Source of the DNA: Candidatus Levyibacteriota bacterium
GTDB lineage: Bacteria > Patescibacteriota > Microgenomatia > Levybacterales > UBA12049
Length of the DNA stretch: 64,000 nt
NCBI GenBank assembly: GCA_016432345.1
Contig: CP066685.1
Coordinates: forward strand, 560,236-624,235
Reading direction: 5' to 3'
Part shown: positions 38,056 to 62,315 of the stretch, in pieces
Layout of the letters: every line of letters begins with the position of its first letter
Position numbering within the stretch: the first letter of the stretch is position 1
Position numbers and translations under genes: made by a program
The notes under the pieces: generated by a model
Database searches by the model: none
What the model was told of the DNA's origin: nothing
What the model saw: only the letters and a program-made list of their open reading frames with translations

Positions 38056-38066
38056 GCTTTTAGATT

Positions 38067-39122: not shown

Positions 39123-39128
39123 CATTTT

Positions 39129-39590: not shown

Positions 39591-41449
39591 TGAAAGGACA
39601 ATCTCTTGTTGAGCTGTTGTTGGCAATTGCTTTTGCCGGAATTATTATTCCAGTTCTTTTTACTGGATTTTTGACATCTCGGGATGGTAAAGCCCAAGAA
39701 GCAAAGCGTTTATTAGCCATACCTCTTCTTAAAGAAGCCCAAGAAGCAGCAAGAATGGTAAGAGAAAAAGACTGGAACACTTTTTCGGTAAACGGTACGT
39801 ACCATCCTGTTGTTTCTGGCAACACTTGGTCATTTATTGCAGGCACAGAAAGTATTAATGATTTTAATCGAAATCTTGTTGTAAGTGATGGCGCTGATTC
39901 TTCAATAAAAAAAGTTGTCGCCACTGTTTCCTGGTCTACTCCTCGCGCATCATCGGTTGCATCAACCATGTATTTAAGCCGTTATATAAATAATTCTGTT
40001 TATATACACACAACCGCAAATGATTTTAACGCTGGAACAAAAACAGGCGTAACAGTTACTAATACAAGCGGCGGAGAGGTTATTTTGGGGGCAGGCGGCA
40101 ATGCCGACTGGTGCGCGCCTAATTTGTCTATAGCGGCTTTGGATCTTCCTAAAAGCAGCGCTGCAAAAGCAATAACAGCCGTGTATGGCGAAGCATTCGC
40201 CGGTACCGGCCAGGATTCATCAGGAGAGTCTTTAGTTGATATTTTTGTATCTAATACACATCCGCCTGCTGCCAGTATTAATACTACATTTGACGGGTAT
40301 AAAACAAACGATGTTTTTGGCGAGGTAGGTTTTGCCTATATTGCTACTGACACAAACGCAAAAGAAGTTGTTATTATCAGTACTGCCAATAAGCCATTTA
40401 CCGAAGTTGGGTATTTTAATGCTCCGGGAAGCGAGGACGGGAAAAGCATTTTTGTATCGGGAAATACGGGGTATCTTGTTCAAGGGAATAAATTATGGAA
40501 TTTTGATCTCTCGAGCAAAGCTGGTTTGCGGCCAGCCGTTGATGCAGACGGGATAACACTGGCAGGAGAAGGCAAAGCCGTATACGTGGTTGGGAATTAT
40601 GCATATGTTGCTATAGAGGATAACAGTGTACAAATGCAGATAATTGATATAAGTAATTTGTCAAACATGGTTGTGGTTGGACAGGCAATAGTAAATGGAG
40701 AAGATGGGCAAGATATTTTTGTAAACAGCAGTGCAACAAGGGCATATTTAGTAACTAAGTCGTCGAGCAGTCAACGAGAGCTTTTTATAATTGACGTGTC
40801 CACAAAATCGGGAAATAGACCGATTATAGGAAGCTACGATACAAATGGCATGAATCCAAAAGGGGTTGAGGCGGTTACCAATAATAAGGTTATTGTTGTA
40901 GGAGAAAACGCAGAGGAATATCAGGTAGTTAATATACAAAATGAGACATCTCCAGTGCGTTGCGGAGGATTGCAGATTAATTCGGGTATTTTTGACAGCG
41001 CGTCTGTTATAGAACCAGATGGCGATGCCTTTGCTTACATAGTTACAGGAGATTCATCGGCGGAGCTTAAAATTATCGAAGGCGGGCCAGGTGGATCTTT
41101 TGCCACATCAGGCACTTTTGAGTCCAGCACATTCGATGCGATAAATTCTGTCACATTTAATCGTTTTATTGTGTCAGGCGATAAACCCCAACAGACAAAT
41201 CTTACATTTCAAGTTTCAGGCGCAGATGTAAATCCATTAACAGGGGACTGTACAGACATAACATTTAGTTTTGTAGGTCCAGATTTAACCTCAAATACCT
41301 ACTTTGCCACCTCGTCTGCAATTCCACTAAACACAACGGGCGAATACAAAAATCCTGCTCGTTGTTTTCGATATAAGTCGTTTTTGTCCACATCTGACCC
41401 AACTCAAAGCCCAGCATTATACGATATGACGGTTAATTATTCACCGTAA
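39590..41449 (+). CDS. Giant pseudopilin with beta-propeller (LVIVD-like) repeats
   Basis: 619 aa with the N-terminus MKG/QSLVELLLAIAFAGIII (Glu +5). Repeated GNxxYxV...IIDxS blocks (GNTGYLVQG, VVGNYAYVAIED...QIIDISN, ELFIIDVST) resemble LVIVD propeller repeats. Confidence 0.6.
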   Translation: MKGQSLVELLLAIAFAGIIIPVLFTGFLTSRDGKAQEAKRLLAIPLLKEAQEAARMVREKDWNTFSVNGTYHPVVSGNTWSFIAGTESINDFNRNLVVSDGADSSIKKVVATVSWSTPRASSVASTMYLSRYINNSVYIHTTANDFNAGTKTGVTVTNTSGGEVILGAGGNADWCAPNLSIAALDLPKSSAAKAITAVYGEAFAGTGQDSSGESLVDIFVSNTHPPAASINTTFDGYKTNDVFGEVGFAYIATDTNAKEVVIISTANKPFTEVGYFNAPGSEDGKSIFVSGNTGYLVQGNKLWNFDLSSKAGLRPAVDADGITLAGEGKAVYVVGNYAYVAIEDNSVQMQIIDISNLSNMVVVGQAIVNGEDGQDIFVNSSATRAYLVTKSSSSQRELFIIDVSTKSGNRPIIGSYDTNGMNPKGVEAVTNNKVIVVGENAEEYQVVNIQNETSPVRCGGLQINSGIFDSASVIEPDGDAFAYIVTGDSSAELKIIEGGPGGSFATSGTFESSTFDAINSVTFNRFIVSGDKPQQTNLTFQVSGADVNPLTGDCTDITFSFVGPDLTSNTYFATSSAIPLNTTGEYKNPARCFRYKSFLSTSDPTQSPALYDMTVNYSP

Positions 41450-41454
41450 AAACT

Positions 41455-41958
41455 ATGCGCTATAAGCTATACACTATACGCTTTCAAAAGGGTTTTACTC
41501 TTGTTGAAATGCTTATCTATATGGGACTTTTATCCATACTTTTGGTGGTGATGGTTGATTTATTTGCCGCAAGTCTTGACGTACAGCTTGAATCAACTGC
41601 TACCTCCAGTGTTGATCGGGATGGAAAGTTTTTATACGCCAGATTTTTGTACGACATACCAAGGGCGCAAAACATTGTTTCTCCTACTCTTGGCGCTTCT
41701 TCTAATACGCTGCAAATATCTATAGATGGAATAAATAATACTTATGCTATAAATGAGGGGTCGCTTAAACTAACAAACAACAATGGGATAAATATGTTAA
41801 ACAGTTTTGACACAACAGTGAGCAATCTTTTGTTTCAGCATCTTGGAAATACCGGCGGAAAACCTGTTATCCGTGTTTCGTATACGTTAAACAGTAAAAC
41901 GAGCCGAACTGCAGGAACGGAATCAAAAAATTTCCAAACAAGTATTGGTTTAAGATGA
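41455..41958 (+). CDS. Prepilin-type N-terminal domain protein (pseudopilin)
   Basis: 167 aa with FQKG/FTLVEMLIYMGLLSILLVV. Confidence 0.65.
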   Translation: MRYKLYTIRFQKGFTLVEMLIYMGLLSILLVVMVDLFAASLDVQLESTATSSVDRDGKFLYARFLYDIPRAQNIVSPTLGASSNTLQISIDGINNTYAINEGSLKLTNNNGINMLNSFDTTVSNLLFQHLGNTGGKPVIRVSYTLNSKTSRTAGTESKNFQTSIGLR

Positions 41959-42338
41959 GAATTATTTTTTGTCAAAAAGGTCAATCGCTGATTACGCTTC
42001 TTTTCTTTATGATTATTGCTATTACAATTATTTCTGCCTCTGTTGTGGTAACGCTTGTTAATACGCAAAGCACAAGTAGGCTTGAAATTACCAACAACGC
42101 TTATGTTATGGCAGAAAATGGCGCAGAAGATGCTATTTTAAAATTGTTGCGAAATCCAGATTATACTGGAGAAAGTTTTTCTTTGGGAGAGGCAAATATC
42201 ATAACTCAAGTTTCAGGTACAAATACTAAAGCGGCAACCATCGAAGCAAGGCTTAACGGTTTTATTCGCAAAATTCAAGTGAATCTTGATTATTCAAATA
42301 ATATCTTGCGTATGATATCCTGGAAAGAGGTGTTATAA
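41955..42338 (+). CDS. Pseudopilin-like protein lacking Glu+5
   Basis: 127 aa with CQKG/QSLITLLFFMIIAITIISA. There is a 4-nt overlap with the upstream pilin gene. Confidence 0.45.
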   Translation: MRIIFCQKGQSLITLLFFMIIAITIISASVVVTLVNTQSTSRLEITNNAYVMAENGAEDAILKLLRNPDYTGESFSLGEANIITQVSGTNTKAATIEARLNGFIRKIQVNLDYSNNILRMISWKEVL

Positions 42339-42340
42339 AA

Positions 42341-43024
42341 ATGGCCTTACAGCAAAGTATTATTTATCTTTCCCGCCAGGGGTTTGGCTACTATAGCAGC
42401 AGCCGTGTTTTGTGGTTTGCATTTCCTCAAACATCGGTAAAAGATTTAGATGTGATAAACAAAACCGAGTTGGTTAATTCAATAGAAATGTTTATTGACA
42501 AAAATCAAATTGCTAAAGCGTCGTGTTTTATGATTTTATCGGAGCATGTCTATTTTGAAAAGGATTATATTGGAGCATTAGACCAGCAGGAAATACTAAC
42601 GCAGGCATTTGCCGATACAGTGCCGTTTGAAAATGTTCTTAAAAAAACATTTCCGATAGAAAATGGTTTTAAGGTTGTGGCTGCAAACAAAGATCTTTGT
42701 TTGTGTATTCGGCAAGCTTTTTGGGAAAAGGGATTTGTTTTTGAAGCAATAACACCTGCCTTGATTGTTGGATCTCAAGTAGTAGAAAATGAAAATGGTT
42801 TGATTCAAGAGTCAATTGATTTACTTTTTCAAAAAATTGCAGTTTTTAGACAAAATGGTTTTTCGCTAGACGAACAAACTGCGCAAACAAAAATTGCTTC
42901 ACAGCCATTCGTTAGGCAAACCACTTCTTCGCAAAATAATAACTCAAAGATTATCTGGCTTTTGAGCGCGTTTTTTATTTTATTGCTTATCTTAGCTGGT
43001 TTGCTTTCGGGCAGGTTTTTTTAA
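42341..43024 (+). CDS. Hypothetical protein with C-terminal TM anchor, possibly pilus biogenesis
   Basis: 227 aa and the last gene of the pilus cluster, with a C-terminal hydrophobic tail IIWLLSAFFILLLILAGLL. The function is inferred from position only. Confidence 0.3.
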   Translation: MALQQSIIYLSRQGFGYYSSSRVLWFAFPQTSVKDLDVINKTELVNSIEMFIDKNQIAKASCFMILSEHVYFEKDYIGALDQQEILTQAFADTVPFENVLKKTFPIENGFKVVAANKDLCLCIRQAFWEKGFVFEAITPALIVGSQVVENENGLIQESIDLLFQKIAVFRQNGFSLDEQTAQTKIASQPFVRQTTSSQNNNSKIIWLLSAFFILLLILAGLLSGRFF

Positions 43025-43880: not shown

Positions 43881-43910
43881 TTGTCAAGAGTTAAGATAAA
43901 TTGATATAAT
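43881..43910 (+). promoter_or_regulatory. Promoter of tRNA-Lys
   Basis: TTGTCA (43881-43886), an 18-nt spacer, then TATAAT (43905-43910). The tRNA starts 10 nt downstream. Confidence 0.5.
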
Positions 43911-43920
43911 TATGTAGTTA

Positions 43921-43992
43921 GGGTCGGTAGCTCAGCGGTAGAGCAGGAGCCTTTTAAGCTCTTGGTCACAGGTTCGATCCCTGTCCGACTCA
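43921..43992 (+). tRNA. tRNA-Lys (TTT), no encoded CCA
   Basis: Hand fold: GGGTCGG TA GCTC AGCGGTA GAGC A GGAGC CTTTTAA GCTCT TGGTC ACAGG TTCGATC CCTGT CCGACTC A. Confidence 0.9.
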
Positions 43993-44002
43993 CAGTAGCG
44001 GG

Positions 44003-44043: not shown

Positions 44044-45546
44044 CTAAACTAGTGTTTCCAGAAATTCCCCAACGACTGCTAAAACTATCGTCATATCTAT
44101 GTTTTTATCTTCCTGTTTATTCTTATTTTCATTTAGTACTGCTATCTCTTGTACAACTTCTTTTAAGTTATCCTCTGCAAGCTTAATTGCTTCATCAGAC
44201 GAGAATTTCATCATTTGTTTGCCTATTAGTTTTTTTTGACTTTCCAATTCAGCAATCTTTTCATCAATTGTCTGGACATCACGTTGGCCTATGGTTAGAT
44301 TATCCTGCCATTTGCTTAAAACCCGTTGCTTGAGTTTCTCAACGCCTTCTTGCGTTACTTTAACTCTGCTAACAAAATTTTTGATGGTTTGCTCAAAGGT
44401 TTCTGCTGGAATTCTAAAATAATGATTTCTTTTATTACAGTGATAGGCGGGATAACGTGTACCATTTCTTCCTCTTGAAGCACTGCCATATAAAGGGTAT
44501 CTACAGGTTGGACACAAAACATATCTTTTATAAGGATAATCAGGATTTTTGACACATTTTTTAAGCCTCCATTCTTCTGGTTTGTTTTTATAGATAGTTA
44601 TTCCGCCATTTTCTTCAGTTAATACAACTTTACCTCTGTTTGCCTTATTAAACAGCTCAATTGATATTAAGCCATCAAATTTTGTTTTAACAGGCTGATC
44701 ATTAGTCCACTTTTCATCGTTTATTCCTGCATAAATCGGTTTACGGATATATTCTACAAAGCGTTTTACCGCAAGTTTTATACCTCCTCGTTCTCCTATA
44801 ACTACAGTTTTATCTTTTGGATCTCTTAGTAAATTTACTCTGGATTTATACCCCATTTTATTGACCTCTTCTATAATTTGTTCATCAGATATAGTTTTTT
44901 TAGCCCTTAACTCAAACATTTTAATAATAAGCGGGGCTTCTTTCGGATGAGGTTTAAGAATAACTCTTTTTCCATTAGGAGTATCTATTTTTACGTTCAT
45001 ATATCCATATGGAGAGGGTCTAACTCGATAACCCATTCTGACGTAACGAATTTCTGCCCCGATCATTCTGCTTAAAATATCTCTAATTTCATCTTTTGCT
45101 CTTTCTGCCTCTAAAATCTCTGACTTTTTAGTTGGAGAATAAACACTCCACGGAAATTCAATACCTAAATGCCCTAAGGTATTAACTTCTGTATTACCTA
45201 TAATCCCATAAATATCAATTAGCCTTACCCCATAATGGGTGAGCTGCATTTTCATATGATCATAAAAGTAAGAACCGCCCCTGGTAAACCTATCAATCGA
45301 TTTAATTATAAAAAGTTGGATATCATTTTTAGGGTTTTTACAGTAATCAATCGCTTCCTGTACAGGCTGTTCCTCTTTAGAAGCTGATTCCATAAAAATG
45401 AAGAATTTTTTTACGTTTATATTGTGGGCTTTGGCGAATTGTTCTATCTGTTCTTTCTGGGCTTGGGGAGAATCGCCCTGTAATCCCTGCTTTGTAGAGG
45501 AAACTCTGATTGCTGCTACTGCATTTTCAATTTTATACGGATTCAT
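44044..45546 (-). CDS. Large serine recombinase
   Basis: 500 aa with the resolvase-type catalytic N-domain (AAIRVSSTKQG, SIDRFTRG), a recombinase domain, the Cys ribbon CPTCRYPL...YHC and a C-terminal coiled coil. Confidence 0.9.
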   Translation of the reverse strand: MNPYKIENAVAAIRVSSTKQGLQGDSPQAQKEQIEQFAKAHNINVKKFFIFMESASKEEQPVQEAIDYCKNPKNDIQLFIIKSIDRFTRGGSYFYDHMKMQLTHYGVRLIDIYGIIGNTEVNTLGHLGIEFPWSVYSPTKKSEILEAERAKDEIRDILSRMIGAEIRYVRMGYRVRPSPYGYMNVKIDTPNGKRVILKPHPKEAPLIIKMFELRAKKTISDEQIIEEVNKMGYKSRVNLLRDPKDKTVVIGERGGIKLAVKRFVEYIRKPIYAGINDEKWTNDQPVKTKFDGLISIELFNKANRGKVVLTEENGGITIYKNKPEEWRLKKCVKNPDYPYKRYVLCPTCRYPLYGSASRGRNGTRYPAYHCNKRNHYFRIPAETFEQTIKNFVSRVKVTQEGVEKLKQRVLSKWQDNLTIGQRDVQTIDEKIAELESQKKLIGKQMMKFSSDEAIKLAEDNLKEVVQEIAVLNENKNKQEDKNIDMTIVLAVVGEFLETLV

Positions 45547-46006: not shown

Positions 46007-46048
46007 TTTATTCTATATACTAGTTCATCTAGCAAAATTCTTACATTT

Positions 46049-46074
46049 AAGATAGCCTAAGCAGGCTATCTTTT
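46049..46074 (+). terminator. Rho-independent terminator
   Basis: AAGATAGCC-TAAGCA-GGCTATCTT (9-bp stem) running into TTTT. Confidence 0.6.
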
Positions 46075-46086
46075 ACATATGATTCG

Positions 46087-46317
46087 ATGGATTGCATTAT
46101 TAGATTTTTCATTTTATACTTTATTCAGTCTGAGCAAAAACCTGGCCAACAAGATTATAAAAGGGAATATGAGTATCATCATGATATGCTAGACCATAGT
46201 AGAGAGTTTGATAAATTAGTGGACTCAGTGCCGGAAGACAACACAAAAACTAGAGAAGCAATAAGAGGAATGTTTTATTCCAGACCAGATAAACTAATTG
46301 ATCCAGTGAAATTTTGA
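46087..46317 (+). CDS. Hypothetical small protein (76 aa)
   Basis: ORF from the track with a charged C-terminal half and no motif. Confidence 0.3.
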   Translation: MDCIIRFFILYFIQSEQKPGQQDYKREYEYHHDMLDHSREFDKLVDSVPEDNTKTREAIRGMFYSRPDKLIDPVKF

Positions 46318-46470: not shown

Positions 46471-47793
46471 ATGGAACCAAAGTCAGAAGGTGCACCAAGA
46501 CAAGCAGAAAAAGCACAGGAACTAACCAAAGTCGGATTTAGCAAATTGGGACAATCCGATATTTTTGAAAGAGGCCCTTTTACCATCGGTGTTAATAACG
46601 ATGGCAGATATTCATTTTACCAGAACATGCAATCTAGACTAGCAATGGAAGCTATTACTGGAATTAAAGTTGCTACAACACAACCGTCAAATGCTCCTTG
46701 GTTAGCTGTCCTTGGAATGCATGAAAAGTGGGGAGAACACGTATCTATGGATGATCCTATTAGTGGATCCTCTATTAGTGGAGCACCCGGGAATGGAAAC
46801 GTTCCAGACTTTAGTGATATCTCGGGCAAAACCATGGAGCAACAGTTAACCGAAGCTGGTTTTACTAATGATAAACAAGGAGCGGGACTTTTTCAACGCA
46901 CATTCGGCAACGGAGAAAATACAGTAAATGTTATTGCTGTTGTTGAAGACGGAAAATTTAAAAAATTAATAAAGGAGAAAAGAATATATGATGATAGCTT
47001 ACTTGAAAAGATGGGATATGAAATAACAGGAGTTGGGGAAAATGAATTGTATGGTGGTCGTACAACACCTGTCCTAAGAGCAGAAAATGATGCATTAACA
47101 TTTGATATAGGATCTGGTGGAGGAACACTAAATGTAAAACTCAAGAGAGAATTAACGCCTGAAGAATTAGGAATTACTCCATTGCCAGAAACAGAACAAC
47201 CAGATGGATTTAGAATCGGAGGCGCAAATTCCACAGATACAATAAGAAGACTAACTACTATTAACGGTCAATCAATTGAAGAGTTAGAACGAAGGATGAG
47301 GCCAGCTTTAAGTATGGATAGACACTCTAACCTTCGTCCAACAGGTGGCATATCCATGGCTGGATTCTTAGGTCCTCAAGAGCGATTACTTGATGTTATG
47401 GCTGCCGACAATGATTATGTCCAATCACAGGGACTAACACATCAGGATTTAGCTAATCAGCTACGATATGCAGAGGAGCTTTATTTCAAACTTGGCGTCC
47501 TAGAATTTACATATCACGGTAGAAGATATGGCGTAAGCATTAAACAATGGCGCGGAATTCAAGATTCTCCCTTTAATGATGGGACAACAACCAATTCCGA
47601 CATACAAATTACCAATCTTGATACAGACACATCATTAAGCGCATCCCTTTTATTGCCAGATATGATAGAACGGTATGGGTTTTATGAAGGAAAGGGTGCT
47701 TCTTATAGACTTGCCCCAGAACAGATTATTGAAGTTTTCGATTTTTTAAAGGAAGAAGGACAACAAAGAGTTCAATGGCCAACGAAGGGTTGA
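46471..47793 (+). CDS. Hypothetical protein (440 aa), no recognisable domain
   Basis: Long ORF with normal amino-acid composition and no TM or signal peptide. It is the first of four co-directional unknown ORFs. Confidence 0.6.
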   Translation: MEPKSEGAPRQAEKAQELTKVGFSKLGQSDIFERGPFTIGVNNDGRYSFYQNMQSRLAMEAITGIKVATTQPSNAPWLAVLGMHEKWGEHVSMDDPISGSSISGAPGNGNVPDFSDISGKTMEQQLTEAGFTNDKQGAGLFQRTFGNGENTVNVIAVVEDGKFKKLIKEKRIYDDSLLEKMGYEITGVGENELYGGRTTPVLRAENDALTFDIGSGGGTLNVKLKRELTPEELGITPLPETEQPDGFRIGGANSTDTIRRLTTINGQSIEELERRMRPALSMDRHSNLRPTGGISMAGFLGPQERLLDVMAADNDYVQSQGLTHQDLANQLRYAEELYFKLGVLEFTYHGRRYGVSIKQWRGIQDSPFNDGTTTNSDIQITNLDTDTSLSASLLLPDMIERYGFYEGKGASYRLAPEQIIEVFDFLKEEGQQRVQWPTKG

Positions 47794-47815
47794 CTTTTCC
47801 ACGCTGCATTGGTAC

Positions 47816-47881
47816 TTATATATGTTACTTAGAATAAAATTATTGAAAATAGCGACTTGCCGAAGGCAAGTAAAATATTAA
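47816..47881 (+). repeat. 66-nt intergenic repeat, copy A, with conserved hairpin
   Basis: It aligns by hand to 58500-58564 (59 of 66 columns identical). The hairpin is ACTTGCC-GAA-GGCAAGT at 47855-47871. Confidence 0.85.
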
Positions 47882-47907
47882 TCAATAATATGCTAAAATT
47901 TTAACCA

Positions 47908-48582
47908 ATGGAAGCTGACGAACAAACTAAACCATTTAATTCATTTAAAGAGTATCTACAAGCGGATCCTCAGGGAGCAAGGGCTGCTCTTGCTTACGAT
48001 TCTTATGCTCTTTTATGTGGTCTCGATAGAGATAAATTTTGGGATGAGCAAGTTTATAACAATCTAAAACAAGTATTGGGAGTAGAAAATCCTGTTATGC
48101 ATGCAGGAGTGCATCTTTTAACTGTTGTAGAACAACGTAGGCATGAGGAAGTAGGTGGACGTAGTCCAGGATCAACTTCTGAATATGCATTTATTGCTAG
48201 AAGACAAAATGAAAGATATAGGAAAGAGCTTGAAGATTGGAAACAGGCAGAGCCAGAGGAGTATGAAAAAGCAAAAGAATTAATAGATGCTATTGCAGAG
48301 GGGAGATTAGAACTATTTGACCAAGCAAGAGTAAAACAGATACTGCACAGTTCAATTTATCATTTCCCTGGAATTGCACTAAGCTACAAAATATACAAAA
48401 ATCAAGAAACCGTCCAAGTATATGAAGAAGAATTAGCCAAAAAGAAGGCAACAGCTGCTCCTGTCCCATCTAGAGAAGGTAAAAGTGCTCGGGAAAGATA
48501 CCAGGAATACCTAAAACAACAAAATCTAGGATCTATTGGTACTTCAGATCAAACTTCTCCCGAGGAAGGTAAAAAAACTTAA
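47908..48582 (+). CDS. Hypothetical protein (224 aa)
   Basis: ORF with a charged, helical-looking sequence and no motif. Confidence 0.55.
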   Translation: MEADEQTKPFNSFKEYLQADPQGARAALAYDSYALLCGLDRDKFWDEQVYNNLKQVLGVENPVMHAGVHLLTVVEQRRHEEVGGRSPGSTSEYAFIARRQNERYRKELEDWKQAEPEEYEKAKELIDAIAEGRLELFDQARVKQILHSSIYHFPGIALSYKIYKNQETVQVYEEELAKKKATAAPVPSREGKSARERYQEYLKQQNLGSIGTSDQTSPEEGKKT

Positions 48583-48602
48583 AATGGTCTATAATTAACC
48601 AT

Positions 48603-49055
48603 ATGTCAGTAGAAGGAGAACGACAAAATTCAGGGGAAAGTTTAGAAGATCAATATAAAGAAGTAACTGTCTTGCCTTTTGATCAGGTAAAAAGAGGCAG
48701 TGAAATTCTGGTTTTTACCGGACGTACCCTTGAAGAAGTAAAAGATATTCCTGATTATACGATTAAAGTTGTGGGTATTAGAAAAAATGGACTATTAGTC
48801 CAGGTATCTCCTGCTTATAAAGGAATGGGAGGAGATTTTACAGCCAGAATGCCAGGAAGCTTTAGAGGAATTTATCCTGACGTTTCAAGAAATTCTTTAG
48901 ATTATACCCCTGGTGTAAATAATGGTGTATTAGAAGTGGCAGATGAGAAAGTAGCAAGTATGCTCCATTTTGAAAACCTCAAAGATTTGGATGGTGAAAG
49001 AATGGCTAAATCAAGTACAACATCTCCAATCAGAAAAATACTTTTTAAAACATAA
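48603..49055 (+). CDS. Hypothetical protein (150 aa)
   Basis: ORF with no recognisable motif. TATAAT (48590-48595) lies 7 nt upstream of the ATG. Confidence 0.55.
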   Translation: MSVEGERQNSGESLEDQYKEVTVLPFDQVKRGSEILVFTGRTLEEVKDIPDYTIKVVGIRKNGLLVQVSPAYKGMGGDFTARMPGSFRGIYPDVSRNSLDYTPGVNNGVLEVADEKVASMLHFENLKDLDGERMAKSSTTSPIRKILFKT

Positions 49056-49285
49056 AGTATAACCCGTCCAGATTATTTACAATTAAATGATCCAGATTAT
49101 CTTGATGAAGCTACAAATGATTGCTTGCTCAGGATTTAGAAGCTGCTAAGGAAGCAGGACTGACAGAAGTTGCTGGAAAGATTCAGACAAAAATAGATGA
49201 TATTGAGAGAATCCGTAATGCTTTTGGCTCATAAAGCCTACCCTATAGTTGTTAAATAGCTAAAAAAGAGTATAATGCAGTCACC

Positions 49286-51274
49286 ATGGTACCCGATATT
49301 CAACCTTGGAGGCCAAACCTACCTGAGTCAGGAATAAAACCTACAGAAAGATTGAATGCCACTCAAAAAGCGGATGTTATTAGGATGTCTCGCGTTGAAG
49401 CTATCCTTCAAGAAACACTTGCTCAAGAAGGAATGCCAAATGCTGTATCGGGAGAAATTTGGAGAAACGAAGAAGATGCAACTTTTATTCTGTGGACAAA
49501 AAATCATGGGTTTTTTATTCAGTGGCAAGGTCCAGCAACATATCTTCAAGTAAAAGAAGTAATTAAATCTTATGGTGAAGATACTGTAGAATTTTTCTCT
49601 CATTTTCCGAAAAGCTCTGAATATACAAACCCCCAATTGCGTCCGGTTACAAATAGAATAAAGGCAGCCGTTGTGGCTGAACCGACCCCTGAAGAATTAC
49701 AAAGACTACCTGAAATTTTAGCAGCTAACCATAGAAGGGTGTCAGAAGCCTTTCTTTTCCAAATCAGAGAAGCTGTATCTAAAGGTGAGATATGGGGCAT
49801 TCCCCGCGATTTAGAATCTGCAAAAGAAAATGCTAGAGAAGCCGGAATAAGTATTGATCCTCAATTGGAACATGATATTTTTCAAGCATATCATCTTAGA
49901 AGAAGACAATTGGATTTTGCACAGTTACCAAAAATAAGAGGTGATGTTATGAGAAGAATGGATCCTTTTGTAGACCGAATTATTGAATCAGATGATTTTT
50001 TGGGAGAGGAACATCCAGACATTGTTAAAAGCTATGCTGGTAGAGCTGCCTTGCAAGCACTAAGAATAATTAGAGATTACACCCCTTTAGGATTTAACGA
50101 TAAAGATAGTGCAAGAGCCAGGATAAGGCAGTTTGAACTCTGGGAAGGAAAAGCTCTAAAATGGGCAAACGCTGCTGGAATAGATATTACTCAACAATTA
50201 GAAGCATTAAGAACTGTTGTGAATTCAGAGACGCAGGAGGCTTTAAAACCGATCCACAGAAGGATTTTAGATAGAGTCCAGAGAACACTTACGGGAGAGG
50301 TTGCTCAACCCAGAGCATTGGTTCCTAAACCAGACTTGGGTCCAGAAGATAAAGAAATAGAGCCAGCTTATCAGGATGATATCTCTGTTCTGATAAAAAC
50401 AAATAAAGGAAGGATTATTGGAGCGCAGTTAAGAAATGATAAGACTAATCAAGATTTTAGAATTGTGTTTCCGCTTAACTCATTTTCCCAAGAAGAAATT
50501 TTAGCAGCTTTAGATAAAACATTTCCTGGGGCAGAAGTTTATCATTCAACTCCCGATTTTCTACCCACCCAAGAAAAAACAACTGACGTATCGGACAGAA
50601 AATTTGCTGGTATTAGAATACCTTTAAAAGAAGAAAAACCTGTAGGTGGATCCAGGGTAAGAGCATTGTGGTTAACTGTTAGAGACGGAGCAACGCACTC
50701 TTTTGGTGCCGATACTCTAGCTTCTCCCAATGGGCCGATTGAGAATTTCTACTTTCCATATGACTCTTTAAATATAAAGATTGAAGGGGAATTTGATACA
50801 ACAGGCACATACGTATTGGGAGATGGATGGGTATTGCATCCTGCGTATCACCCCCTAACTGAGGCAGAATGGTCCCAAATGCATCAGAAGTTAGGAACCA
50901 TTCTCGAGCATTTATTTGAAAGTGGAAACGTCGTTACGGATTCAATTACTTCTATGAGTATCCATCCAGGTTCAGGTTCTCCACTGAGACCTGAGGAGTT
51001 TACAAAAAAGGCAGGATATCATTTAGAAAAAGCACAGCAGCAAATAACTGTTGAAGATGGTAATAATCTAAAGACTACAGAGAAACCAACAGTCGATTAC
51101 CCAAATCGGGAAGCTGGTAAATTTGTTTTTCAAGATGGAGAAAATCAGTTTGGGATTATAAATAGAAGAAATGGATATTTAATTAGCGATCTGTATACCT
51201 TAGTTAAGTTTTATCCTGAGGGATTACACTTTAATGAATTAACTCAAGAAATAGAAAAGTTAAGAGTAATGTAA
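49286..51274 (+). CDS. Hypothetical protein (662 aa), no recognisable domain
   Basis: Long ORF with no recognisable motif. TATAAT (49271-49276) lies 9 nt upstream of the ATG. Confidence 0.6.
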   Translation: MVPDIQPWRPNLPESGIKPTERLNATQKADVIRMSRVEAILQETLAQEGMPNAVSGEIWRNEEDATFILWTKNHGFFIQWQGPATYLQVKEVIKSYGEDTVEFFSHFPKSSEYTNPQLRPVTNRIKAAVVAEPTPEELQRLPEILAANHRRVSEAFLFQIREAVSKGEIWGIPRDLESAKENAREAGISIDPQLEHDIFQAYHLRRRQLDFAQLPKIRGDVMRRMDPFVDRIIESDDFLGEEHPDIVKSYAGRAALQALRIIRDYTPLGFNDKDSARARIRQFELWEGKALKWANAAGIDITQQLEALRTVVNSETQEALKPIHRRILDRVQRTLTGEVAQPRALVPKPDLGPEDKEIEPAYQDDISVLIKTNKGRIIGAQLRNDKTNQDFRIVFPLNSFSQEEILAALDKTFPGAEVYHSTPDFLPTQEKTTDVSDRKFAGIRIPLKEEKPVGGSRVRALWLTVRDGATHSFGADTLASPNGPIENFYFPYDSLNIKIEGEFDTTGTYVLGDGWVLHPAYHPLTEAEWSQMHQKLGTILEHLFESGNVVTDSITSMSIHPGSGSPLRPEEFTKKAGYHLEKAQQQITVEDGNNLKTTEKPTVDYPNREAGKFVFQDGENQFGIINRRNGYLISDLYTLVKFYPEGLHFNELTQEIEKLRVM

Positions 51275-51547
51275 TGTTATCATTTAGAGTTGAAGTTTAA
51301 AGGCCAAACATAAAACAATATGTACAAACAGCAGAAGTTAATATAATTATGTAGTCTTTGTAAGAATATTTTTATTATTGCAAGATGTCGGAATACTGGG
51401 GTTAAGTATACTATTTTAACTGCTGTATGGTTTTGGTCGGTAATAATTAAGGCTTTAGCTTTACTTAAAACCTAAAAACAAAGTCATGATATAATCCAAG
51501 TCAGATTCTGCTCATTTAATCTACTGCCTATGCTGTCCTAAAAGTAT

Positions 51548-54238
51548 ATGGCGCAAACTAATTTTTCTGAAGCTTTTCCTTCATACTTAAAACCTTTATC
51601 TCAACTTCACCTATCTGTTGTTGCTATCATTGGAATCTCAATAGGAATTGCTATCTCCTTTGTTGTTGGGTGGCTTTACCTGATATATTTAAAACTTCGA
51701 AATGCTCATAATCAAAAATACACTCTTTTAGAAATCAAACCAACCAATAAAACGTTAAAATCTCCGCTTTCTACTACACAGTTGTATACAGTACTCCATT
51801 CTCTGGTAGAAGGAGAATCAGGATTTTTATATACCACTCACAAAAGCATTAGTTTAGAAATAGCTTCTACGAAAGAGGATGGGATCAGATTTATTGTCAG
51901 AGTTCCTCAAAAAGAAGCAGGGATAGTTACCAAAAATGTTTATTCATATCTACCTGGAGTTGAGATTAACCAAATTGATGATTATTTCTCACTTAAGCTT
52001 TTTGATATTGATTCTTTTGACCATGTAGGAGTGCAGGAGATGAGACTGACAAACTCCTATCTTCTGCCTCTTGATAACCAGGATTCGCTAGGACAAGTTG
52101 ATCCTATTGCATATATCACAGGACAAATGACACAACTGGTAGAAAATGAATTAGTAGTAGCTCAATTTATCGCCACACCTATTCACAAATCAACTCATGG
52201 CAGTGCTACAGACATAATCAGTCAAGCACAAAAAAGATTAGAGGATAATTTAGATATTTCAGATCTTATTAATAAAACGAAATATAGCTCTATTACGCGT
52301 TTTTTTAATTATTTCATAAACTCCATTATTGTTGATCATGGTGGAGCTGCTGCTGGGTACGTATTAAACCAATGTCTTTCTCTATTTTTAAATATCGAGA
52401 ACAAATCAGATTCTCACTCTAAAAAACCAAAACATAAACAGATTAGTGAACTTGGGGCTCATAAACAAAAGCAGTTTCAAGCTGTTTCCCAAAAAATTAC
52501 CCAACCGTTATTTGATACCACTGTTCGGTTTGTTATCTATACTCCTCACAAAGAAACTATTAAGGATAGATTAAGAGGCATGGTTTCAGGTTTTGAAACC
52601 TCCCAGTCTGACTATCAAAAACTGAAAAAAGGGATGTACCTTAGATCATTCCTAGAAATTAGACGGTTAAATAAGTTTTATTTAATGTTACTCAAAGACC
52701 GTTTACCCTTAAGTTTTAACAGTGTTATTCTATCTGCTTCAGAACTTTCTTCTTTATATCATCTGCCCTATACAATCACCACCAAAACAGAAGATATTGC
52801 CAAAAATTTCTACAACGAGCTGCCAGCTCCGCTTTCTTTAAAGCAAAACGCAAACTTAGATATTGTATTTGCCAAAAACACCTATGGAGGAGTAGTTACC
52901 CCTATTGGAGTAACAAAGCTTGAACGGACTGGACATTTTTTTGTGATTGGTCAAACGAGAAGTGGAAAAACCAACATGATCAAACAAATGATTATTCAAG
53001 ATATTCAAAAAGGGAGAGGGGTGGTACTGGTTGATCCTCATGGAGATTTAGCCAAGGAACTAATTCCTTTTATTCCAGAAGAACGAATCAATGATTTTAT
53101 GTATTTTAATCCACGGGATATTAAACACCCGATGGGGATTAACTTATTGCAGCTTTCCAATATTGACGATGAGGATGAGAAGGAACTGGAAAAAGATATT
53201 GTTTCAGAAAGCGCGATTTCTATTTTACGAAAAATCTTTACCGATAAATCTTCAACCAATGCCTTTAAAATTGAATCAATTTTAAGAAACACCATTCACA
53301 CTGCTTTTTTAACCAAAGATCCGACACTTTTTACTATTTTTGATTTATTAAATAATCCAGAAATCAGATCCCAGGCTTTACAAAAAATAACTGACCCAAG
53401 ACTGATGGATTTTTGGCGGGAAGAATTTGGCAACTCTGGGGATTGGCAACGGGTAAAAATGGTAACTCCAGTTAATGCTCGTATTGGCAGATTTTTATTC
53501 TCTCCTATTATGAAAAGGGTTTTAGAGCAGAAAAAATCTACCATTAATTTTGATGATTTGTTAAACAACGAAAAAATCCTCATCTGTAATTTATCGAAAG
53601 GTGATATTTCTGAAGATAATTGTGAAGTCTTGGGAACGTTAATTATTACTAAAGTGAGACAAGCTGCGGAGAAAAGATCTTTAATGGATCCAAAAGATAG
53701 AAAGCCATTGTATTTATATGTTGATGAGTTTCAAAACTTTGCTACTCCTTCATTTGTAAAGATGCTTTCAGAACTTGGGAAATTTGGTATCAATATTATT
53801 ATTGTTGAACAATCAACCTCACAACAAGCAGATAGAACTCTCACAAATGTTATTTTGGCTAATACTGGTAATGTGATTACTTTCAAAACTGCTAACCCTA
53901 TTGATGAGGACTTAATGCTTGCCCAATTTTCTCCTGATGCGGAAAAAGGTCATATTCCTAATTTGCCAAGATATCACTTTTATATGAAGAAAGGTGCAGT
54001 TGAGCCGGAAGCACCTTTTTCTGGAATAACCGATCCAGTAGAGATAAAAGAAGATAAAGAAAAAGTAGAGCGGTTTATTGAAGCTTCAAGAAAAAACTAT
54101 GCAATAGAATACAAAAAGCCAGAACCTGCCCCTATTGTTGCGCCTCAAACACCACCTGCAAATAACCATAAATCCTTTAAACCAAAAAATACCGCTCCTA
54201 AAAATATAGTGGTAAAACCGTCTAAATACCTGGGTTGA
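51548..54238 (+). CDS. Type IV coupling protein-like / TraD-VirD4-HerA-type DNA-transfer ATPase
   Basis: 896 aa with an N-terminal TM (IIGISIGIAISFVVGWLYLIYL), the Walker A GQTRSGKT and the Walker B LYLYVDEFQNF. A Pro-rich tail ends the protein. Confidence 0.7.
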   Translation: MAQTNFSEAFPSYLKPLSQLHLSVVAIIGISIGIAISFVVGWLYLIYLKLRNAHNQKYTLLEIKPTNKTLKSPLSTTQLYTVLHSLVEGESGFLYTTHKSISLEIASTKEDGIRFIVRVPQKEAGIVTKNVYSYLPGVEINQIDDYFSLKLFDIDSFDHVGVQEMRLTNSYLLPLDNQDSLGQVDPIAYITGQMTQLVENELVVAQFIATPIHKSTHGSATDIISQAQKRLEDNLDISDLINKTKYSSITRFFNYFINSIIVDHGGAAAGYVLNQCLSLFLNIENKSDSHSKKPKHKQISELGAHKQKQFQAVSQKITQPLFDTTVRFVIYTPHKETIKDRLRGMVSGFETSQSDYQKLKKGMYLRSFLEIRRLNKFYLMLLKDRLPLSFNSVILSASELSSLYHLPYTITTKTEDIAKNFYNELPAPLSLKQNANLDIVFAKNTYGGVVTPIGVTKLERTGHFFVIGQTRSGKTNMIKQMIIQDIQKGRGVVLVDPHGDLAKELIPFIPEERINDFMYFNPRDIKHPMGINLLQLSNIDDEDEKELEKDIVSESAISILRKIFTDKSSTNAFKIESILRNTIHTAFLTKDPTLFTIFDLLNNPEIRSQALQKITDPRLMDFWREEFGNSGDWQRVKMVTPVNARIGRFLFSPIMKRVLEQKKSTINFDDLLNNEKILICNLSKGDISEDNCEVLGTLIITKVRQAAEKRSLMDPKDRKPLYLYVDEFQNFATPSFVKMLSELGKFGINIIIVEQSTSQQADRTLTNVILANTGNVITFKTANPIDEDLMLAQFSPDAEKGHIPNLPRYHFYMKKGAVEPEAPFSGITDPVEIKEDKEKVERFIEASRKNYAIEYKKPEPAPIVAPQTPPANNHKSFKPKNTAPKNIVVKPSKYLG

Positions 54239-54357: not shown

Positions 54358-55179
54358 ATGGAAAAACTAAAGAAAACTACACAACCTTTATCTAATCATC
54401 AAGAACGATTAAATCCATTCCTAGAACAAATACTGATCTTTATTTACAAATTCCGCTACTTATCCAGACCTCAAATACAAAAACTTATGAACCACAAACA
54501 TCACCACACTATTATGCTCTGGCTTAACTATTTAGTAAGTAACAAATACTTAAGAAAATACATTGACTCAAAATACAAAATAGAATCAGCCTACTTTTCA
54601 CTGGGGACAATGGCGAGAAAATATTTTTTAAAGACTGCTGAAATCCAGGATATCAATTATCCTAAACTGGATCGTGTTTGGAAAGAAAATAGTTATTCAG
54701 AAAGTTTTAAAAAACACTGTATGTTTTTAGCACATATTTATCTTTCTCTTCTTGATTTAGTCAAATCAGTTGATGAAGGAAAAGGTAAACTGCATTATTT
54801 TTCTAATGCTGACTTAGAAGGGGTCGAGCATATGATTTATCCTTTGCCGGATGCATACTTTACTATTGAGGATAAAGATGGTGCTATTGAGCGTTACTTT
54901 CTTGATGTGTTTTATGATTACACCAGATGGGGTGATATGGAAAAAAGAGTCAAACAATATCTTAATTACTGCAATAAACAAACCTGGCAGTTATATATGA
55001 AACATGATTTTCCAAAAGTGATTTTAGTTTGCCCTAAACCAATATCAAAAAATAACTTGGAAGAATATATTCAAAAGATGTATAAAGAAAAAGGTAAAAG
55101 AGTTGCTTTTTATTTAAGCACAAAAGAAGAGATACGATACCAGGGTATGAATAGCAGAACTTTACATGAAGTAAAATAA
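54358..55179 (+). CDS. Replication-relaxation family-like protein
   Basis: 273 aa with a winged-helix-like N-terminus ILIFIYKFRYLSRPQIQKLM...MLWLNYLVSNKYL. It is adjacent to the coupling ATPase, as in Gram-positive elements. From memory of PF13814, not searched. Confidence 0.5.
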   Translation: MEKLKKTTQPLSNHQERLNPFLEQILIFIYKFRYLSRPQIQKLMNHKHHHTIMLWLNYLVSNKYLRKYIDSKYKIESAYFSLGTMARKYFLKTAEIQDINYPKLDRVWKENSYSESFKKHCMFLAHIYLSLLDLVKSVDEGKGKLHYFSNADLEGVEHMIYPLPDAYFTIEDKDGAIERYFLDVFYDYTRWGDMEKRVKQYLNYCNKQTWQLYMKHDFPKVILVCPKPISKNNLEEYIQKMYKEKGKRVAFYLSTKEEIRYQGMNSRTLHEVK

Positions 55180-55730: not shown

Positions 55731-56213
55731 TTATCTGTTTAACAGGAAAATACTGAAATTTAAGATCGTGGCAAAACTGACCCATGCAAGATATGGCAAT
55801 AATATCCATGATGCCTTTTTATCAATTTTGTAAAATTTAACCATTACCATAATTATCAAAATCCATAAAACAATTATATTAACTAAAGACAAAGGAATAT
55901 TATTCATGCCAAAGAAAACAATCGACCAACTGGCATTAAATACCAAATGAACAGCAAAAAGTTTTAAGGCTTCCCTTACTTCTTTTTTCTTAGTCCCTTT
56001 AATCCATATCCAATAAAGGGAAATTCCCATCAGGGTATAAAGGGTTGTCCAGACAGGTCCAAAAAGCCAGTTAGGTGGTCTGAAGGAAGGTTGGTTTAGA
56101 AGGTTATACCAGTTTTCAATTGAGGAGACAGTAAATACAGTGCCTATCAATCCTGCGCTTTGGCAGATAGCAATTGAAAAAATGAGTTTTAAAATACTTT
56201 TGGGTAGTTTCAT
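55731..56213 (-). CDS. tspO: TspO/MBR family tryptophan-rich membrane protein
   Basis: 160 aa with five TM segments and PSFRPPNWLFGPVWTTLYTLMGISLYWIW. Confidence 0.85.
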   Translation of the reverse strand: MKLPKSILKLIFSIAICQSAGLIGTVFTVSSIENWYNLLNQPSFRPPNWLFGPVWTTLYTLMGISLYWIWIKGTKKKEVREALKLFAVHLVFNASWSIVFFGMNNIPLSLVNIIVLWILIIMVMVKFYKIDKKASWILLPYLAWVSFATILNFSIFLLNR

Positions 56214-56295
56214 TTCTTATATAATTACAGATTAAAAGGTGTTTGTAAACAAAAACACGCGAGTAATTTTAATTGAAGATAAAAGAAATGTTTCT

Positions 56296-57264
56296 TCATA
56301 TAATCTGCTGGTTCAGACCAGATGCTAAATTTATTTCAGCTTCTAGTACAATTCCAGACAAATGAATATTCGGAGTTTGAGTTTTTTTCATTTTTAAAGA
56401 TTCTTTACTACTTAATGAAAAAGTAACAACACCTTTATTCTCTACCGATACAGCCCATGCTAAAGGGTTATTAATATCCTTTTGCTTATATTCATAATAG
56501 TTAATAGGAATTTCAGATCGTTGCATAGTAACTTCTACCTCTATTGGCAAGCTTAATATCTTAAATCGTTGTCCATTGTTATGAATCCATAAATTCTTTG
56601 TGGTGGAACCTACTATAAATTTTACAGTACCAGATTCCAAGTCTGGTATACCTTTTGAGCGAGCAACTGTTGATATTTCATCAAGAGATTTGGATATTAA
56701 ATTATCAAGATTCAACAAATTAACCTCATTATCAATTTCGAAAACTTTATCATGGTTTGAAAGTTTAAATGCTTTATCCAATGGTGGATGATCAAATTTT
56801 ACCGAACCAATTGATTGAAAAGAAAATTTAGGTGTTAATTCTAAAGCGGAATTGAAGGGAAAGATTATATTCTCTATTTTTATCTTTTTGAGCTCTTCTA
56901 ACGTAAGTAATTTGACAGTAGATCCATATTCCAATTCAACATCTTCAATTATAGATTTAGGGTAACCCACTGCAGATACGCAAATAAGTTTTTGTGCCCC
57001 TACCTTTCTCATTTTCATCACCCAACCATCAAATGTAGTAATTTCAGGCTTTGTACCACGTTTTTGTACTTCAACTATCGTAATAGATTGTTGAGGCGGT
57101 TTACCATACGTAATAACAACATCACATTGTCTTTTTCCCGATCTACCAATAACAGGTAGCCATACATCATGTTCTACCTTTGCATCTGGTGTAAGCGACT
57201 TTTCAAGTATTGCCACTATCTCTTCAATCAATTTCCATTTGGATTTTAAAGTCTTCTGCTTCAT
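56296..57264 (-). CDS. Putative PD-(D/E)xK (restriction-endonuclease-like) N-domain protein
   Basis: 322 aa. The N-terminal ~110 aa follow the restriction-endonuclease-like layout: EEIVAILEKSL...KVEHDV...RQCDVVITY...ITIVEVQKRG...LICVSAVGYPKS. The C-terminal 200 aa are unknown. Confidence 0.4.
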   Translation of the reverse strand: MKQKTLKSKWKLIEEIVAILEKSLTPDAKVEHDVWLPVIGRSGKRQCDVVITYGKPPQQSITIVEVQKRGTKPEITTFDGWVMKMRKVGAQKLICVSAVGYPKSIIEDVELEYGSTVKLLTLEELKKIKIENIIFPFNSALELTPKFSFQSIGSVKFDHPPLDKAFKLSNHDKVFEIDNEVNLLNLDNLISKSLDEISTVARSKGIPDLESGTVKFIVGSTTKNLWIHNNGQRFKILSLPIEVEVTMQRSEIPINYYEYKQKDINNPLAWAVSVENKGVVTFSLSSKESLKMKKTQTPNIHLSGIVLEAEINLASGLNQQII

Positions 57265-57265
57265 C

Positions 57266-57847
57266 TTATTTATTCTGTCCCTTTTTCATTTTTTTAACGA
57301 TATCGTTTGTAGATAGTGCCTTTTCAAGTTTTTTATTTACTTCTTCTAATCTCCGTTCTTCAATACTCCAAGAAGGATGTTTTTTCATATAAGCGAAGTG
57401 TTTAGAGTCGGTAATTGTTTTTCGAAATTGAAGATATAATCCAACCATACCTTCTTTTAAAAATATCTTTGTTTTTCCATACTGTACTTCAATATCATCG
57501 TTCTCGAAGTTAAATCCTCTTGAAAGATATAGGTGGGGGTTTAGTAGATTTTGGGGAGATGATCTATGGCAAATGGCATCTCTTATATCTTTAACACTTA
57601 TCATAGAAGCTAGGGATTTTTCGTCTAAATCTTTACTAAAATATTTATCAACGTAATAACTAAGCTCTCGTAGAGACAAAATTAAATGCTCAACAAATAT
57701 ATGTGCTTCTTTTCTGATTGGATTCTCAGAAATTAGAATAATTAGATCCAAACACTGAGACAGTGCAGAAACGATCATGCCTTCATGGATAGAAGATATA
57801 TTTTTGTTAGTTTTCATTTTTTTCTTATTTCTATTTTCTCCAATCAT
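57266..57847 (-). CDS. Putative HEPN-like protein (Rx4H motif)
   Basis: 193 aa with a helical-looking first 100 aa ending in VKDIRDAICHRSS (R-x4-H). The stop TAA lies 1 nt before the downstream ATG. Confidence 0.4.
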   Translation of the reverse strand: MIGENRNKKKMKTNKNISSIHEGMIVSALSQCLDLIILISENPIRKEAHIFVEHLILSLRELSYYVDKYFSKDLDEKSLASMISVKDIRDAICHRSSPQNLLNPHLYLSRGFNFENDDIEVQYGKTKIFLKEGMVGLYLQFRKTITDSKHFAYMKKHPSWSIEERRLEEVNKKLEKALSTNDIVKKMKKGQNK

Positions 57848-57862
57848 TTGAATATGTTATTA

Positions 57863-58336: not shown

Positions 58337-58499
58337 AATTATGATTTGATTTATAATCTTTCTACAATTTTTATTTGAGCTTTGATCAGACCGTAGAGCC
58401 TATATAAACGGATGGCTCAATTTTAGCAAAGTTCTTGCATTTAAGAAAGTCTAAGTAAGCTATCTTTTAAATTCGATCAAATGAATTAACTCTTCCGCA

Positions 58500-58564
58500 T
58501 TATATATGTTACTTAGAATTAAAATATTGAAAATAGCGACCTTCCGAAGGAAGGTAAATATTAA
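58500..58564 (+). repeat. 66-nt intergenic repeat, copy B, with compensated hairpin
   Basis: Same orientation as copy A. The hairpin is ACCTTCC-GAA-GGAAGGT at 58539-58555. The 14-mer ACCCTTGCAAAATG follows immediately (58567-58580). Confidence 0.85.
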
Positions 58565-58594
58565 ATACCCTTGCAAAATGTGAGGGGGCGCAAC

Positions 58595-60063: not shown

Positions 60064-60092
60064 AATTGAGCCTGAATTGCCGAACTGCTTTT

Positions 60093-62310: not shown

Positions 62311-62315
62311 ATATC

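Follow-up and report, generated by a model that had tools for sequence, protein, structure and literature searches.

The closest described frame for the DNA discussed here is the integrative mobilizable element, or genomic island, of the serine-recombinase type with its own type IV coupling protein (T4CP), reviewed in PMC5704250. The window, by which we mean the whole stretch of 64,000 nucleotides (nt) that was analyzed, lies on a 762,565-bp contig of Candidatus Levyibacteriota, a tiny groundwater bacterium of the candidate phyla radiation (CPR, or Patescibacteria). Our subject is a 4.8-kb block within it of four open reading frames (ORFs), ORF1 to ORF4, which NCBI labels as hypothetical proteins HYV37_03200, HYV37_03205, HYV37_03210, and HYV37_03215. 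Like an integrative mobilizable element, the surrounding region has a tRNA gene, a large serine recombinase at one end, a T4CP-like ATPase, a weakly Replic_Relax-like protein, and DUF2958, together with defense-type genes (OLD-like AAA_15+TOPRIM, DUF4420, DUF6602, and Macro), and it holds unknown genes between the recombinase and the ATPase. Unlike such an element, it yielded no ends or attachment (att) sites here, its relaxase-like score stays below threshold (20 vs 25.3 bits), its GC content (0.36-0.41 in the four-ORF region) is the same as that of the flanks, and homologues of its cargo genes elsewhere are embedded in core parts of the chromosome. Lone T4CPs are, moreover, common in Patescibacteria chromosomes: a published survey of 2,918 genomes counted 5,713 VirD4-like T4CPs, most of which do not lie near virB4, with relaxases seldom occurring there (PMC12102498). 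Overall, the region looks like a variable island or integrative mobilizable element. For the 4.8-kb block itself, we consider it fairly probable that independent, lineage-restricted accessory genes were accreted as a patchwork beside the tRNA-Lys gene and the serine recombinase and have partly decayed there, and that they are not one system.

This reading draws first on the company that the four families keep elsewhere. The window proteins were searched by tblastn and phmmer against all compared loci, the diverged ones being L005-L008 and L011 for ORF1, L014 and L019 for ORF2, L009, L010, L013, L015, and L016 for ORF3, and L012, L017, and L020-L022 for ORF4. No second member of the four families turned up in any diverged locus, many of these contigs being 1-6 kb long, and only the identical island copies (L001-L004) hold all four families together. 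The ORF1 homologue of L011 (52%) sits between PfkB and rplT/rpmI/infC/thrS, that of L005/L006 (45%) is beside a type IV pilus cluster and DUF2283, and that of L007/L008 (40%) is beside a polysaccharide-synthesis cluster. The ORF2 homologues of L014 (43%) and L019 (54%) have divergent or convergent unrelated genes around them. Upstream of ORF3 homologues stand PolX on the opposite strand (L009, 55%), an unrelated 191-aa (amino acid) gene (L013, 60%), or a 401-aa HEAT-repeat gene (L015, 52%), and the ORF4 homologue of L012 (56%) has unrelated neighbors. The adjacency of ORF2 and ORF3 is peculiar to this island.

The block also carries the remains of two further genes. Between ORF3 and ORF4, where a sequence-only reading of this DNA had noted a possible 37-aa ORF beginning with TTG (49121-49234), the frame is present as described and is no gene. 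It belongs to the C-terminal remnant of a frameshifted 131-aa gene, with codons 86-102 in one frame (49083-49133), codons 99-131 in another (49121-49234), and the first 85 codons lost. Intact copies of the 131-aa gene, 76% identical to each other, occur in L015, as the next gene after the ORF3 homologue, and in L020, where the ORF4 homologue is succeeded by the 112-aa, 131-aa, and 134-aa genes in that order. The second relic stems from that 112-aa gene and reads MLSFRVEV*RPNIKQYVQTAEV in the window vs MSPLRVEVYRPEIKQYVQAGEV in L020, with homology stopping at 51342. The two-gene module of ORF4 and an intact 112-aa gene is not present in the window, which keeps 23 codons only, and since the partner is a stub with a premature stop, ORF4 may act alone or may itself be on its way to being lost. 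The right half of the block reads as what decay has left of a looser neighborhood of ORF3, 131-aa gene, ORF4, and 112-aa gene, to which ORF1 and ORF2 would be unrelated additions. On a history of cargo accretion there would be four units: ORF1 (with the small upstream gene ORF0), ORF2, ORF3 with the dead 131-aa tail, and ORF4.

ORF4, whose family has 17 representatives among 1.84 billion proteins, is a fusion of two modules found as separate proteins elsewhere, a mostly helical N-module and an alpha+beta C-module with the conserved C-terminus EIERxR. Immediately after the ORF4 homologue or lone C-module in L017, L020, L021, and L022 stands an intact gene of 112 or 113 aa. Its start codon shares bases with the stop codon of ORF4 (TAATG) at three of these loci and is set off by a 2-nt gap in L017. 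Because the 112-aa gene is translationally coupled to the alpha+beta module elsewhere, we infer that the two products may act as a complex. Together they make a rare, CPR-restricted two-gene pair. One of these loci, L022 (CAYSNL010000066.1), is a 2.9-kb contig that carries an ORF4 homologue (79% identity) together with the 112-aa gene and is binned in a 'Candidatus Woesearchaeota archaeon' metagenome-assembled genome; it is probably a mis-binned CPR contig. In the window, a 215-aa ORF on the minus strand (63301-63948) has a C-terminal half weakly like the 112-aa family (27% over 92 aa, pairwise E 7e-5), so the island may still hold a remote paralogue of the lost partner. The top Foldseek matches of the ORF4 C-module in the PDB were TATA-box-binding proteins, with ~300 columns aligned, and its model has curved antiparallel sheets packed with long helices, as in TATA-box-binding-protein-like and helix-grip folds. 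A fold of this type was dropped as not significant (E 0.03, probability 0.54, template modeling (TM) score 0.11 query-normalized and 0.25 target-normalized, root-mean-square deviation 12 Å), and the likeness is one of vague overall shape that assigns no fold.

Several points weigh against a partly decayed patchwork. The four-ORF block is identical base for base in four sequencing runs (L001-L004), which shows stability of the island in that population and does not show decay. Most of the comparison loci are metagenome contigs of 1-6 kb, with linkage beyond a few kb possible, and the comparison leaves out the 93.9-kb contig that encodes P0125, a 72% ORF4 homologue. Finally, ORF3 and ORF4 have the 131-aa partner family in common, which hints at some functional link between the third and fourth units. 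Possible, if unlikely, is a version that makes more of this link. It would take the ORF3, 131-aa, ORF4, and 112-aa genes, with the 134-aa gene of L020, as a loosely ordered CPR-specific accessory module of mobile or variable regions that might serve host interaction, anti-defense, or addiction, its window copy being partly decayed and ORF1 and ORF2 being unrelated neighbors. The ORF4/112-aa pair does recur in four of the five informative loci, with the start/stop overlap in three, and the 131-aa family occurs by ORF3 (L015), near ORF4 (L020), and as a relic exactly between ORF3 and ORF4 here. Mobile or accessory markers also lie nearby, including Terminase_2 and helix-turn-helix genes in L013, DUF2283 in L015, and the end of a HicA-like gene upstream in L017 (our own reading of a translated fragment, with no domain search). 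However, ORF3 and ORF4 homologues are never on one diverged contig, the ORF4 homologue of L012 comes without the 112-aa gene, the 131-aa gene, or ORF3, and L009 and L013 have ORF3 without the 131-aa gene. In the window, both partners are dead while ORF3 and ORF4 are intact, which makes the partners dispensable in this island at least. The tested families (ORF1-ORF4 and the 112-aa family) are also absent from 2.9 million viral contigs, the four proteins from sequenced phages, and ORF1 and ORF4 from plasmids. A patchwork of independent genes remains the reading that we prefer. It illustrates how orphan genes in CPR accessory regions change places between core and island, leaving short relics behind, a point of importance for annotation, as so much of a Patescibacteria genome is labeled 'hypothetical'.

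ORF1-ORF4 belong to no described protein family. The absence of a recognizable domain, already remarked from the sequence alone, held in library, profile, and fold searches, none of which gave a significant match. Pfam, PHROGs, NCBIfam, and PADLOC returned no family at E<=1 above noise for ORF1-ORF4, with zero families at E<=1 among the defense-system hidden Markov models of PADLOC-DB. When family members were searched singly against Pfam, the 89 members of the ORF1 family gave nothing except one member's weak Tachylectin match (E 0.005), and the 17 members of the ORF4 family gave no family. Sequence-profile searches of the PDB with all four families and the 112-aa and 131-aa partners found nothing significant. 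Structure searches, which had been proposed for all four proteins, were run for ORF1 and ORF4; both AlphaFold2 models are confident (ORF1, predicted local distance difference test (pLDDT) 92 and predicted TM score (pTM) 0.88; ORF4, pLDDT 84 and pTM 0.62), and Foldseek found no match at E<=1e-3, with TM about 0.1, for either model in the PDB or for ORF4 in BFVD, in support of their undescribed status. Collections of mobile DNA were equally unproductive. No match was found by tblastn in GenBank phages with all four proteins or in PLSDB plasmids with ORF1 and ORF4 only, and IMG/VR (2.9 million viral contigs) held no relative of ORF1, ORF2, ORF3, ORF4, or the 112-aa family. Across PHROGs, GenBank phages, IMG/VR, and BFVD, the tested proteins had no sequence or fold likeness to viral proteins. 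Scans of GTDB species representatives gave none for ORF3 and one 2.9-kb contig for ORF4, and a scan of JGI metagenomes gave none for ORF2. The homologue counts stand at >=122 (at least) for ORF1, 4 for ORF2, 7 for ORF3 (its own identical database entry included), and 17 for ORF4, and hhalign found no relationship between ORF2 and ORF4, ORF3 and ORF4, ORF3 and ORF1, or the 112-aa family and ORF3. All four proteins are acidic (isoelectric point 5.0-5.5) and soluble. They have no transmembrane segment or signal peptide (top 19-residue hydropathy <=1.25) and no P-loop or HExxH motif, in agreement with what had been read from the sequence; the added claim that DxD is absent is literally wrong, trivial D-x-D tripeptides such as DND at ORF1 313-315 being present, and this is immaterial.

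ORF1 is a soluble two-domain protein in which a CPR-specific N-domain is fused to a widespread undescribed domain of ~200 aa. The beta-rich N-domain gave faint beta-propeller or lectin-like Foldseek matches, none significant. The C-domain shares 43-50% identity with proteins of ~245 aa from Planctomycetota and other bacteria, carries the motifs MRPG / DN / THQ / SPFxD / RYGFYEG / YRxxP, and has 15 invariant residues in an 89-sequence alignment (F299, E304, D313, N314, H324, P367, F368, D370, R401, G403, F404, Y405, G407, Y412, and P416). A representative of these proteins, OJF2_43390 of Aquisphaera giovannonii (P0082), aligns with the full length of the domain (ORF1 230-430) at 43% identity (BLASTP E 1e-49), and all of the motifs are common to both sides. 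With its full-length alignment and all invariant residues, the ORF1 C-domain is a member of the OJF2_43390-like family, which itself has no Pfam or NCBIfam model. ORF1 differs from that family in lacking a signal peptide, in having the extra 225-aa CPR-specific beta-rich N-domain, and in a 15-20-residue insertion (aa 280-300, low pLDDT). A signal-peptide-like N-terminus is found in 51 of the 62 short homologues of the C-domain, and the CPR-type homologues P0001-P0030 have none except P0006, whose motif position is that of the non-CPR architecture. The gene context of the Aquisphaera protein is uninformative, with an unrelated convergent neighbor. The C-domain could be catalytic or ligand-binding, extracellular in other phyla, and coupled to a targeting domain in CPR. 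It would form the conserved active part of ORF1, probably an enzyme around the invariant E304, D313/N314, H324, D370, R401, Y405, and Y412, and the N-domain would direct ORF1 to a substrate or partner. Well conserved and widespread, with a confident model that has no PDB fold match and with clear invariant polar residues, the C-domain is a candidate for a new domain entry and a good candidate for biochemistry in a cultivable Planctomycete. Both this family and the ORF4/112-aa pair are undescribed, yet they are of the ordinary 'domain of unknown function' kind.

A second described class to which ORF1 invites comparison is that of the polymorphic effectors. As in these, the C-domain is joined to varied partners, namely the CPR beta-domain, a TIGR03067 domain (by the source's annotation), DUF1080, and leucine-rich repeats, and most of its stand-alone forms have a signal-peptide-like N-terminus. 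Unlike polymorphic effectors, some of the fusions (P0068 and P0097) carry the extra domain C-terminally, and ORF1 homologues have no conserved immunity-like gene downstream, the ORF2 family being absent there. ORF2 was considered as an immunity partner of ORF1 and dropped, as no other ORF1 homologue has an ORF2-like neighbor. Likewise, no homologue of ORF0 was found beside ORF1 relatives. As a side observation, the type IV pilus cluster of the window is syntenic with L005 1702-9317 (response regulator, T2SSE/MshEN ATPase, T2SSF, pseudopilins, and LVIVD-repeat protein), and the 45% ORF1 homologue of L005 also lies <1 kb from the pilus ATPase gene, but at the opposite end of the cluster, which is possibly a coincidence.

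The remaining two proteins belong to small families. ORF2 homologues are solitary elsewhere, and their alignment has 66 invariant columns. The ORF3 family is strongly conserved (52-87% identity), with 34 invariant columns and the invariant C-terminus PIRK..FK. In ORF3, aa 34-54 (48702-48764), ILVFTGRTLEEVKDIPDYTIK, resemble a segment of ubiquitin at 3.7 bits per domain, which is not significant. A ubiquitin-like beta-grasp at the ORF3 N-terminus was rejected, with domain matches of 3.7 bits (i-Evalue about 460) and a single ubiquitin-like chain at E 0.75; the low E-values of polyubiquitin entries are an artefact that arose because nine such repeat matches were summed.

A bolder joint claim would make the ORF1 C-domain an undescribed enzyme superfamily, with a fold unmatched in the PDB, that in CPR stands without a signal peptide behind a lectin-like beta-domain, and would at the same time make ORF4/112-aa with ORF3 and the 131-aa and 134-aa genes a CPR-specific module whose products, with conserved basic C-termini, could be exported via the neighboring T4CP and type IV secretion to the host cell of an episymbiont. 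We give both halves together only a small chance of being right. Very unlikely, in our estimate, is the proposal that the four proteins are effectors of the adjacent T4CP-like ATPase and the CPR type IV secretion system (T4SS) that reach the host cell of the presumed episymbiont with no need of a signal peptide. All four are soluble, acidic, and without Sec signals, the T4CP-like gene is directly downstream, and in other phyla the ORF1 C-domain comes with a signal-peptide-like N-terminus. Export signals for a T4SS are often basic and placed at the C-terminus, and conserved basic extreme C-termini occur in ORF3 (PIRKILFK), ORF4 (EIERLRVM), and the 112-aa partner (RFTHR), although conservation at a C-terminus has many alternative explanations. 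The T4SS of Patescibacteria is also thought to serve functions other than conjugation (PMC12102498), which we count in favor of effectors. Nevertheless, no homologue elsewhere adjoins a T4CP, neither virB4 nor any further T4SS gene appears among the annotated neighbors in the window, and the idea is purely inferential.

The sequence-only reading had suggested that the four ORFs form one functional unit, an undescribed transfer, anti-defense, or host-interaction system of an integrative element, and as a co-transcribed system this is now close to refuted. Positions, strand, lengths, and gaps (114, 20, and 230 nt) had been given exactly, the co-oriented genes with their short gaps do have a serine recombinase on one side and a T4CP-like ATPase on the other, and the identity of the block in four runs would suit a preserved system. 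The families, however, are never together in any diverged locus recovered, many of the contigs being short, and the functional unit thereby fails the check that the sequence-only reading had itself put forward. The block is interrupted by the two pseudogene relics (49083-49234 and 51274-51342), a promoter-like site is predicted directly before ORF4 (49249-49276), and a stable hairpin (47855-47871) stands between ORF1 and ORF2, none of which fits a single transcription unit; PADLOC gave no match. Since the hidden four-gene system does not hold up, the four genes should not be analyzed or cloned as an operon. That some or all of the ORFs are spurious frames in noncoding or decaying DNA is refuted, for although two neighboring frames truly are relics, all four ORFs have diverged homologues and dN/dS (nonsynonymous to synonymous substitution ratio) values of 0.13-0.29 (Nei-Gojobori, against the available homologous loci), ORF1 and ORF4 have confident models, and the ORF2 and ORF3 alignments keep their invariant columns: ORF1-ORF4 are real genes under purifying selection. 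Coordinates of these genes, their parts, and their surroundings are collected in Table 1.

Table 1. Features of the four-ORF block and its surroundings, in window coordinates
Feature	Position	Strand	Remarks
Type IV pilus cluster	36.0-43.0 kb (36008-43024)		upstream of block
tRNA-Lys(UUU)	43921..43993	+	left flank of island
Large serine recombinase	44044..45546	-	Resolvase match; 51 nt from tRNA-Lys
ORF0, 76 aa	46087..46317	+	small gene upstream of ORF1; also called as gene in L001-L003
ORF1, 440 aa, HYV37_03200	46471..47793	+	
ORF1 N-terminal beta-rich domain, aa 1-225	46471..47145	+	conservation confined to CPR homologues
ORF1 C-terminal alpha+beta domain, aa 230-430	47158..47760	+	widespread undescribed family
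Intergenic repeat R	47816..47874	+	90% identical to 58500-58558; holds hairpin 47855-47871
ORF2, 224 aa, HYV37_03205	47908..48582	+	
ORF3, 150 aa, HYV37_03210	48603..49055	+	
Relic of 131-aa gene, codons 86-131	49083..49234	+	frameshift near codon 100; fills part of the ORF3-ORF4 gap
ORF4, 662 aa, HYV37_03215	49286..51274	+	
ORF4 N-module, aa 1-338, mostly helical	49286..50299	+	stand-alone elsewhere: P0127, P0135, P0138, P0140
ORF4 C-module, aa 353-662, alpha+beta	50342..51271	+	stand-alone elsewhere: P0128-P0134, P0136, P0139, P0141
Relic of 112-aa partner gene, codons 1-23	51274..51342	+	TAATG overlap kept; TAA for Tyr at codon 9
T4CP/HerA-like ATPase, 896 aa, membrane-anchored	51548..54238	+	DUF8128, TrwB_AAD_bind, TraG-D_C, phrog_5156, PADLOC mad8
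273-aa protein	54358..55179	+	sub-threshold Replic_Relax and rep-initiator similarity
TspO	55731-56213	-	
Macro	58595-59053	-	
DUF6602	59230-60063	-	
OLD-type AAA_15+TOPRIM nuclease	60125-61975	+	
DUF4420 PD-(D/E)XK protein	62316-63326	-	

Because the four genes sit in a variable, island-like region, with a recombinase, a T4CP-like ATPase, and defense-type genes around them, the earlier label of cargo is a fair one. Upstream, the order is type IV pilus cluster, tRNA-Glu, MscS-like gene, tRNA-Lys, and large serine recombinase, the last with a Resolvase match of 38.6 bits (cut-off 23.3) and a sub-threshold Zn_ribbon_recom match of 19.5 bits (cut-off 25.3). Downstream, the 896-aa ATPase matches TrwB_AAD_bind (30.8 bits, cut-off 20.5), TraG-D_C (24.6 bits, cut-off 22), and DUF87 (30.8 bits, cut-off 23.2), its NCBIfam TraD/CD1115 matches being far under their cut-offs. 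It also matches PADLOC mad8 (E 1e-25) and, over nearly its whole length, phrog_5156, a family of unknown function (E 2e-64). An IMG/VR scan with this ATPase gave no relative; distant relatives occur in large Bacillus phages as SPO1 gp27.4 and phage G gp156. The ATPase may be no conjugative coupling protein at all. What had been called a transfer module does contain a T4CP-like ATPase, but the label is shaky, given how often Patescibacteria carry a T4CP by itself, in most cases away from virB4, and how seldom they have a relaxase (PMC12102498). The 273-aa protein that follows matches Replic_Relax at 20 bits, under the cut-off of 25.3. After its gene come DUF2958, TspO, three unknown genes, Macro, DUF6602, the OLD-type AAA_15+TOPRIM nuclease, and DUF4420, so that the remainder of the island (55731-63948) consists of defense-like and accessory genes.

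The boundaries of the island gave several minor observations. An Rfam scan of 43-64 kb found two tRNAs only, the same interval held no tRNA-derived direct repeat (att) and no element ends, and the island may extend past the right edge of the window; none of the recovered relatives was an empty-site genome. In three independent Logan assemblies (L001-L003) the contigs stop at the same base, window ~44059, ~65 nt from the 3' end of tRNA-Lys and inside the end of the recombinase gene, and a fourth contig (L004) begins at 47794, the first base past the ORF1 stop codon. As a hint only, these ends may reflect population variation at an island or cassette boundary. A 21-nt direct repeat (19/21) links 43898-43918, in the TATAAT -10 region just upstream of tRNA-Lys, with 51335-51355, where homology to the 112-aa relic stops upstream of the T4CP-like gene, and both positions are at junctions. 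It was dropped as an att pair, being at about chance level (~0.75 expected by our own estimate) and explicable as two similar -10 promoter regions.

A last observation concerns the DNA around ORF0 and ORF1. An intergenic sequence of ~135 nt at 58.4 kb (58424-58487 plus 58500-58558) is contiguous there and recurs split around ORF0 and ORF1, as 46030-46093 (80% identity to the 58.4-kb copy) and as repeat R (90%), with the likely promoter region of ORF2 predicted to follow R. It looks as if ORF0-ORF1 had been inserted into, or deleted from, a copy of this sequence, of which no further copy was found in the window or related loci. The right half holds a 7-bp hairpin, ACTTGCC-GAAG-GGCAAGT vs ACCTTCC-GAAG-GGAAGGT in the two copies, whose pairing is kept via two double (compensatory) changes, and on the minus strand this hairpin reads as a cUUCGg terminator with a T-run.

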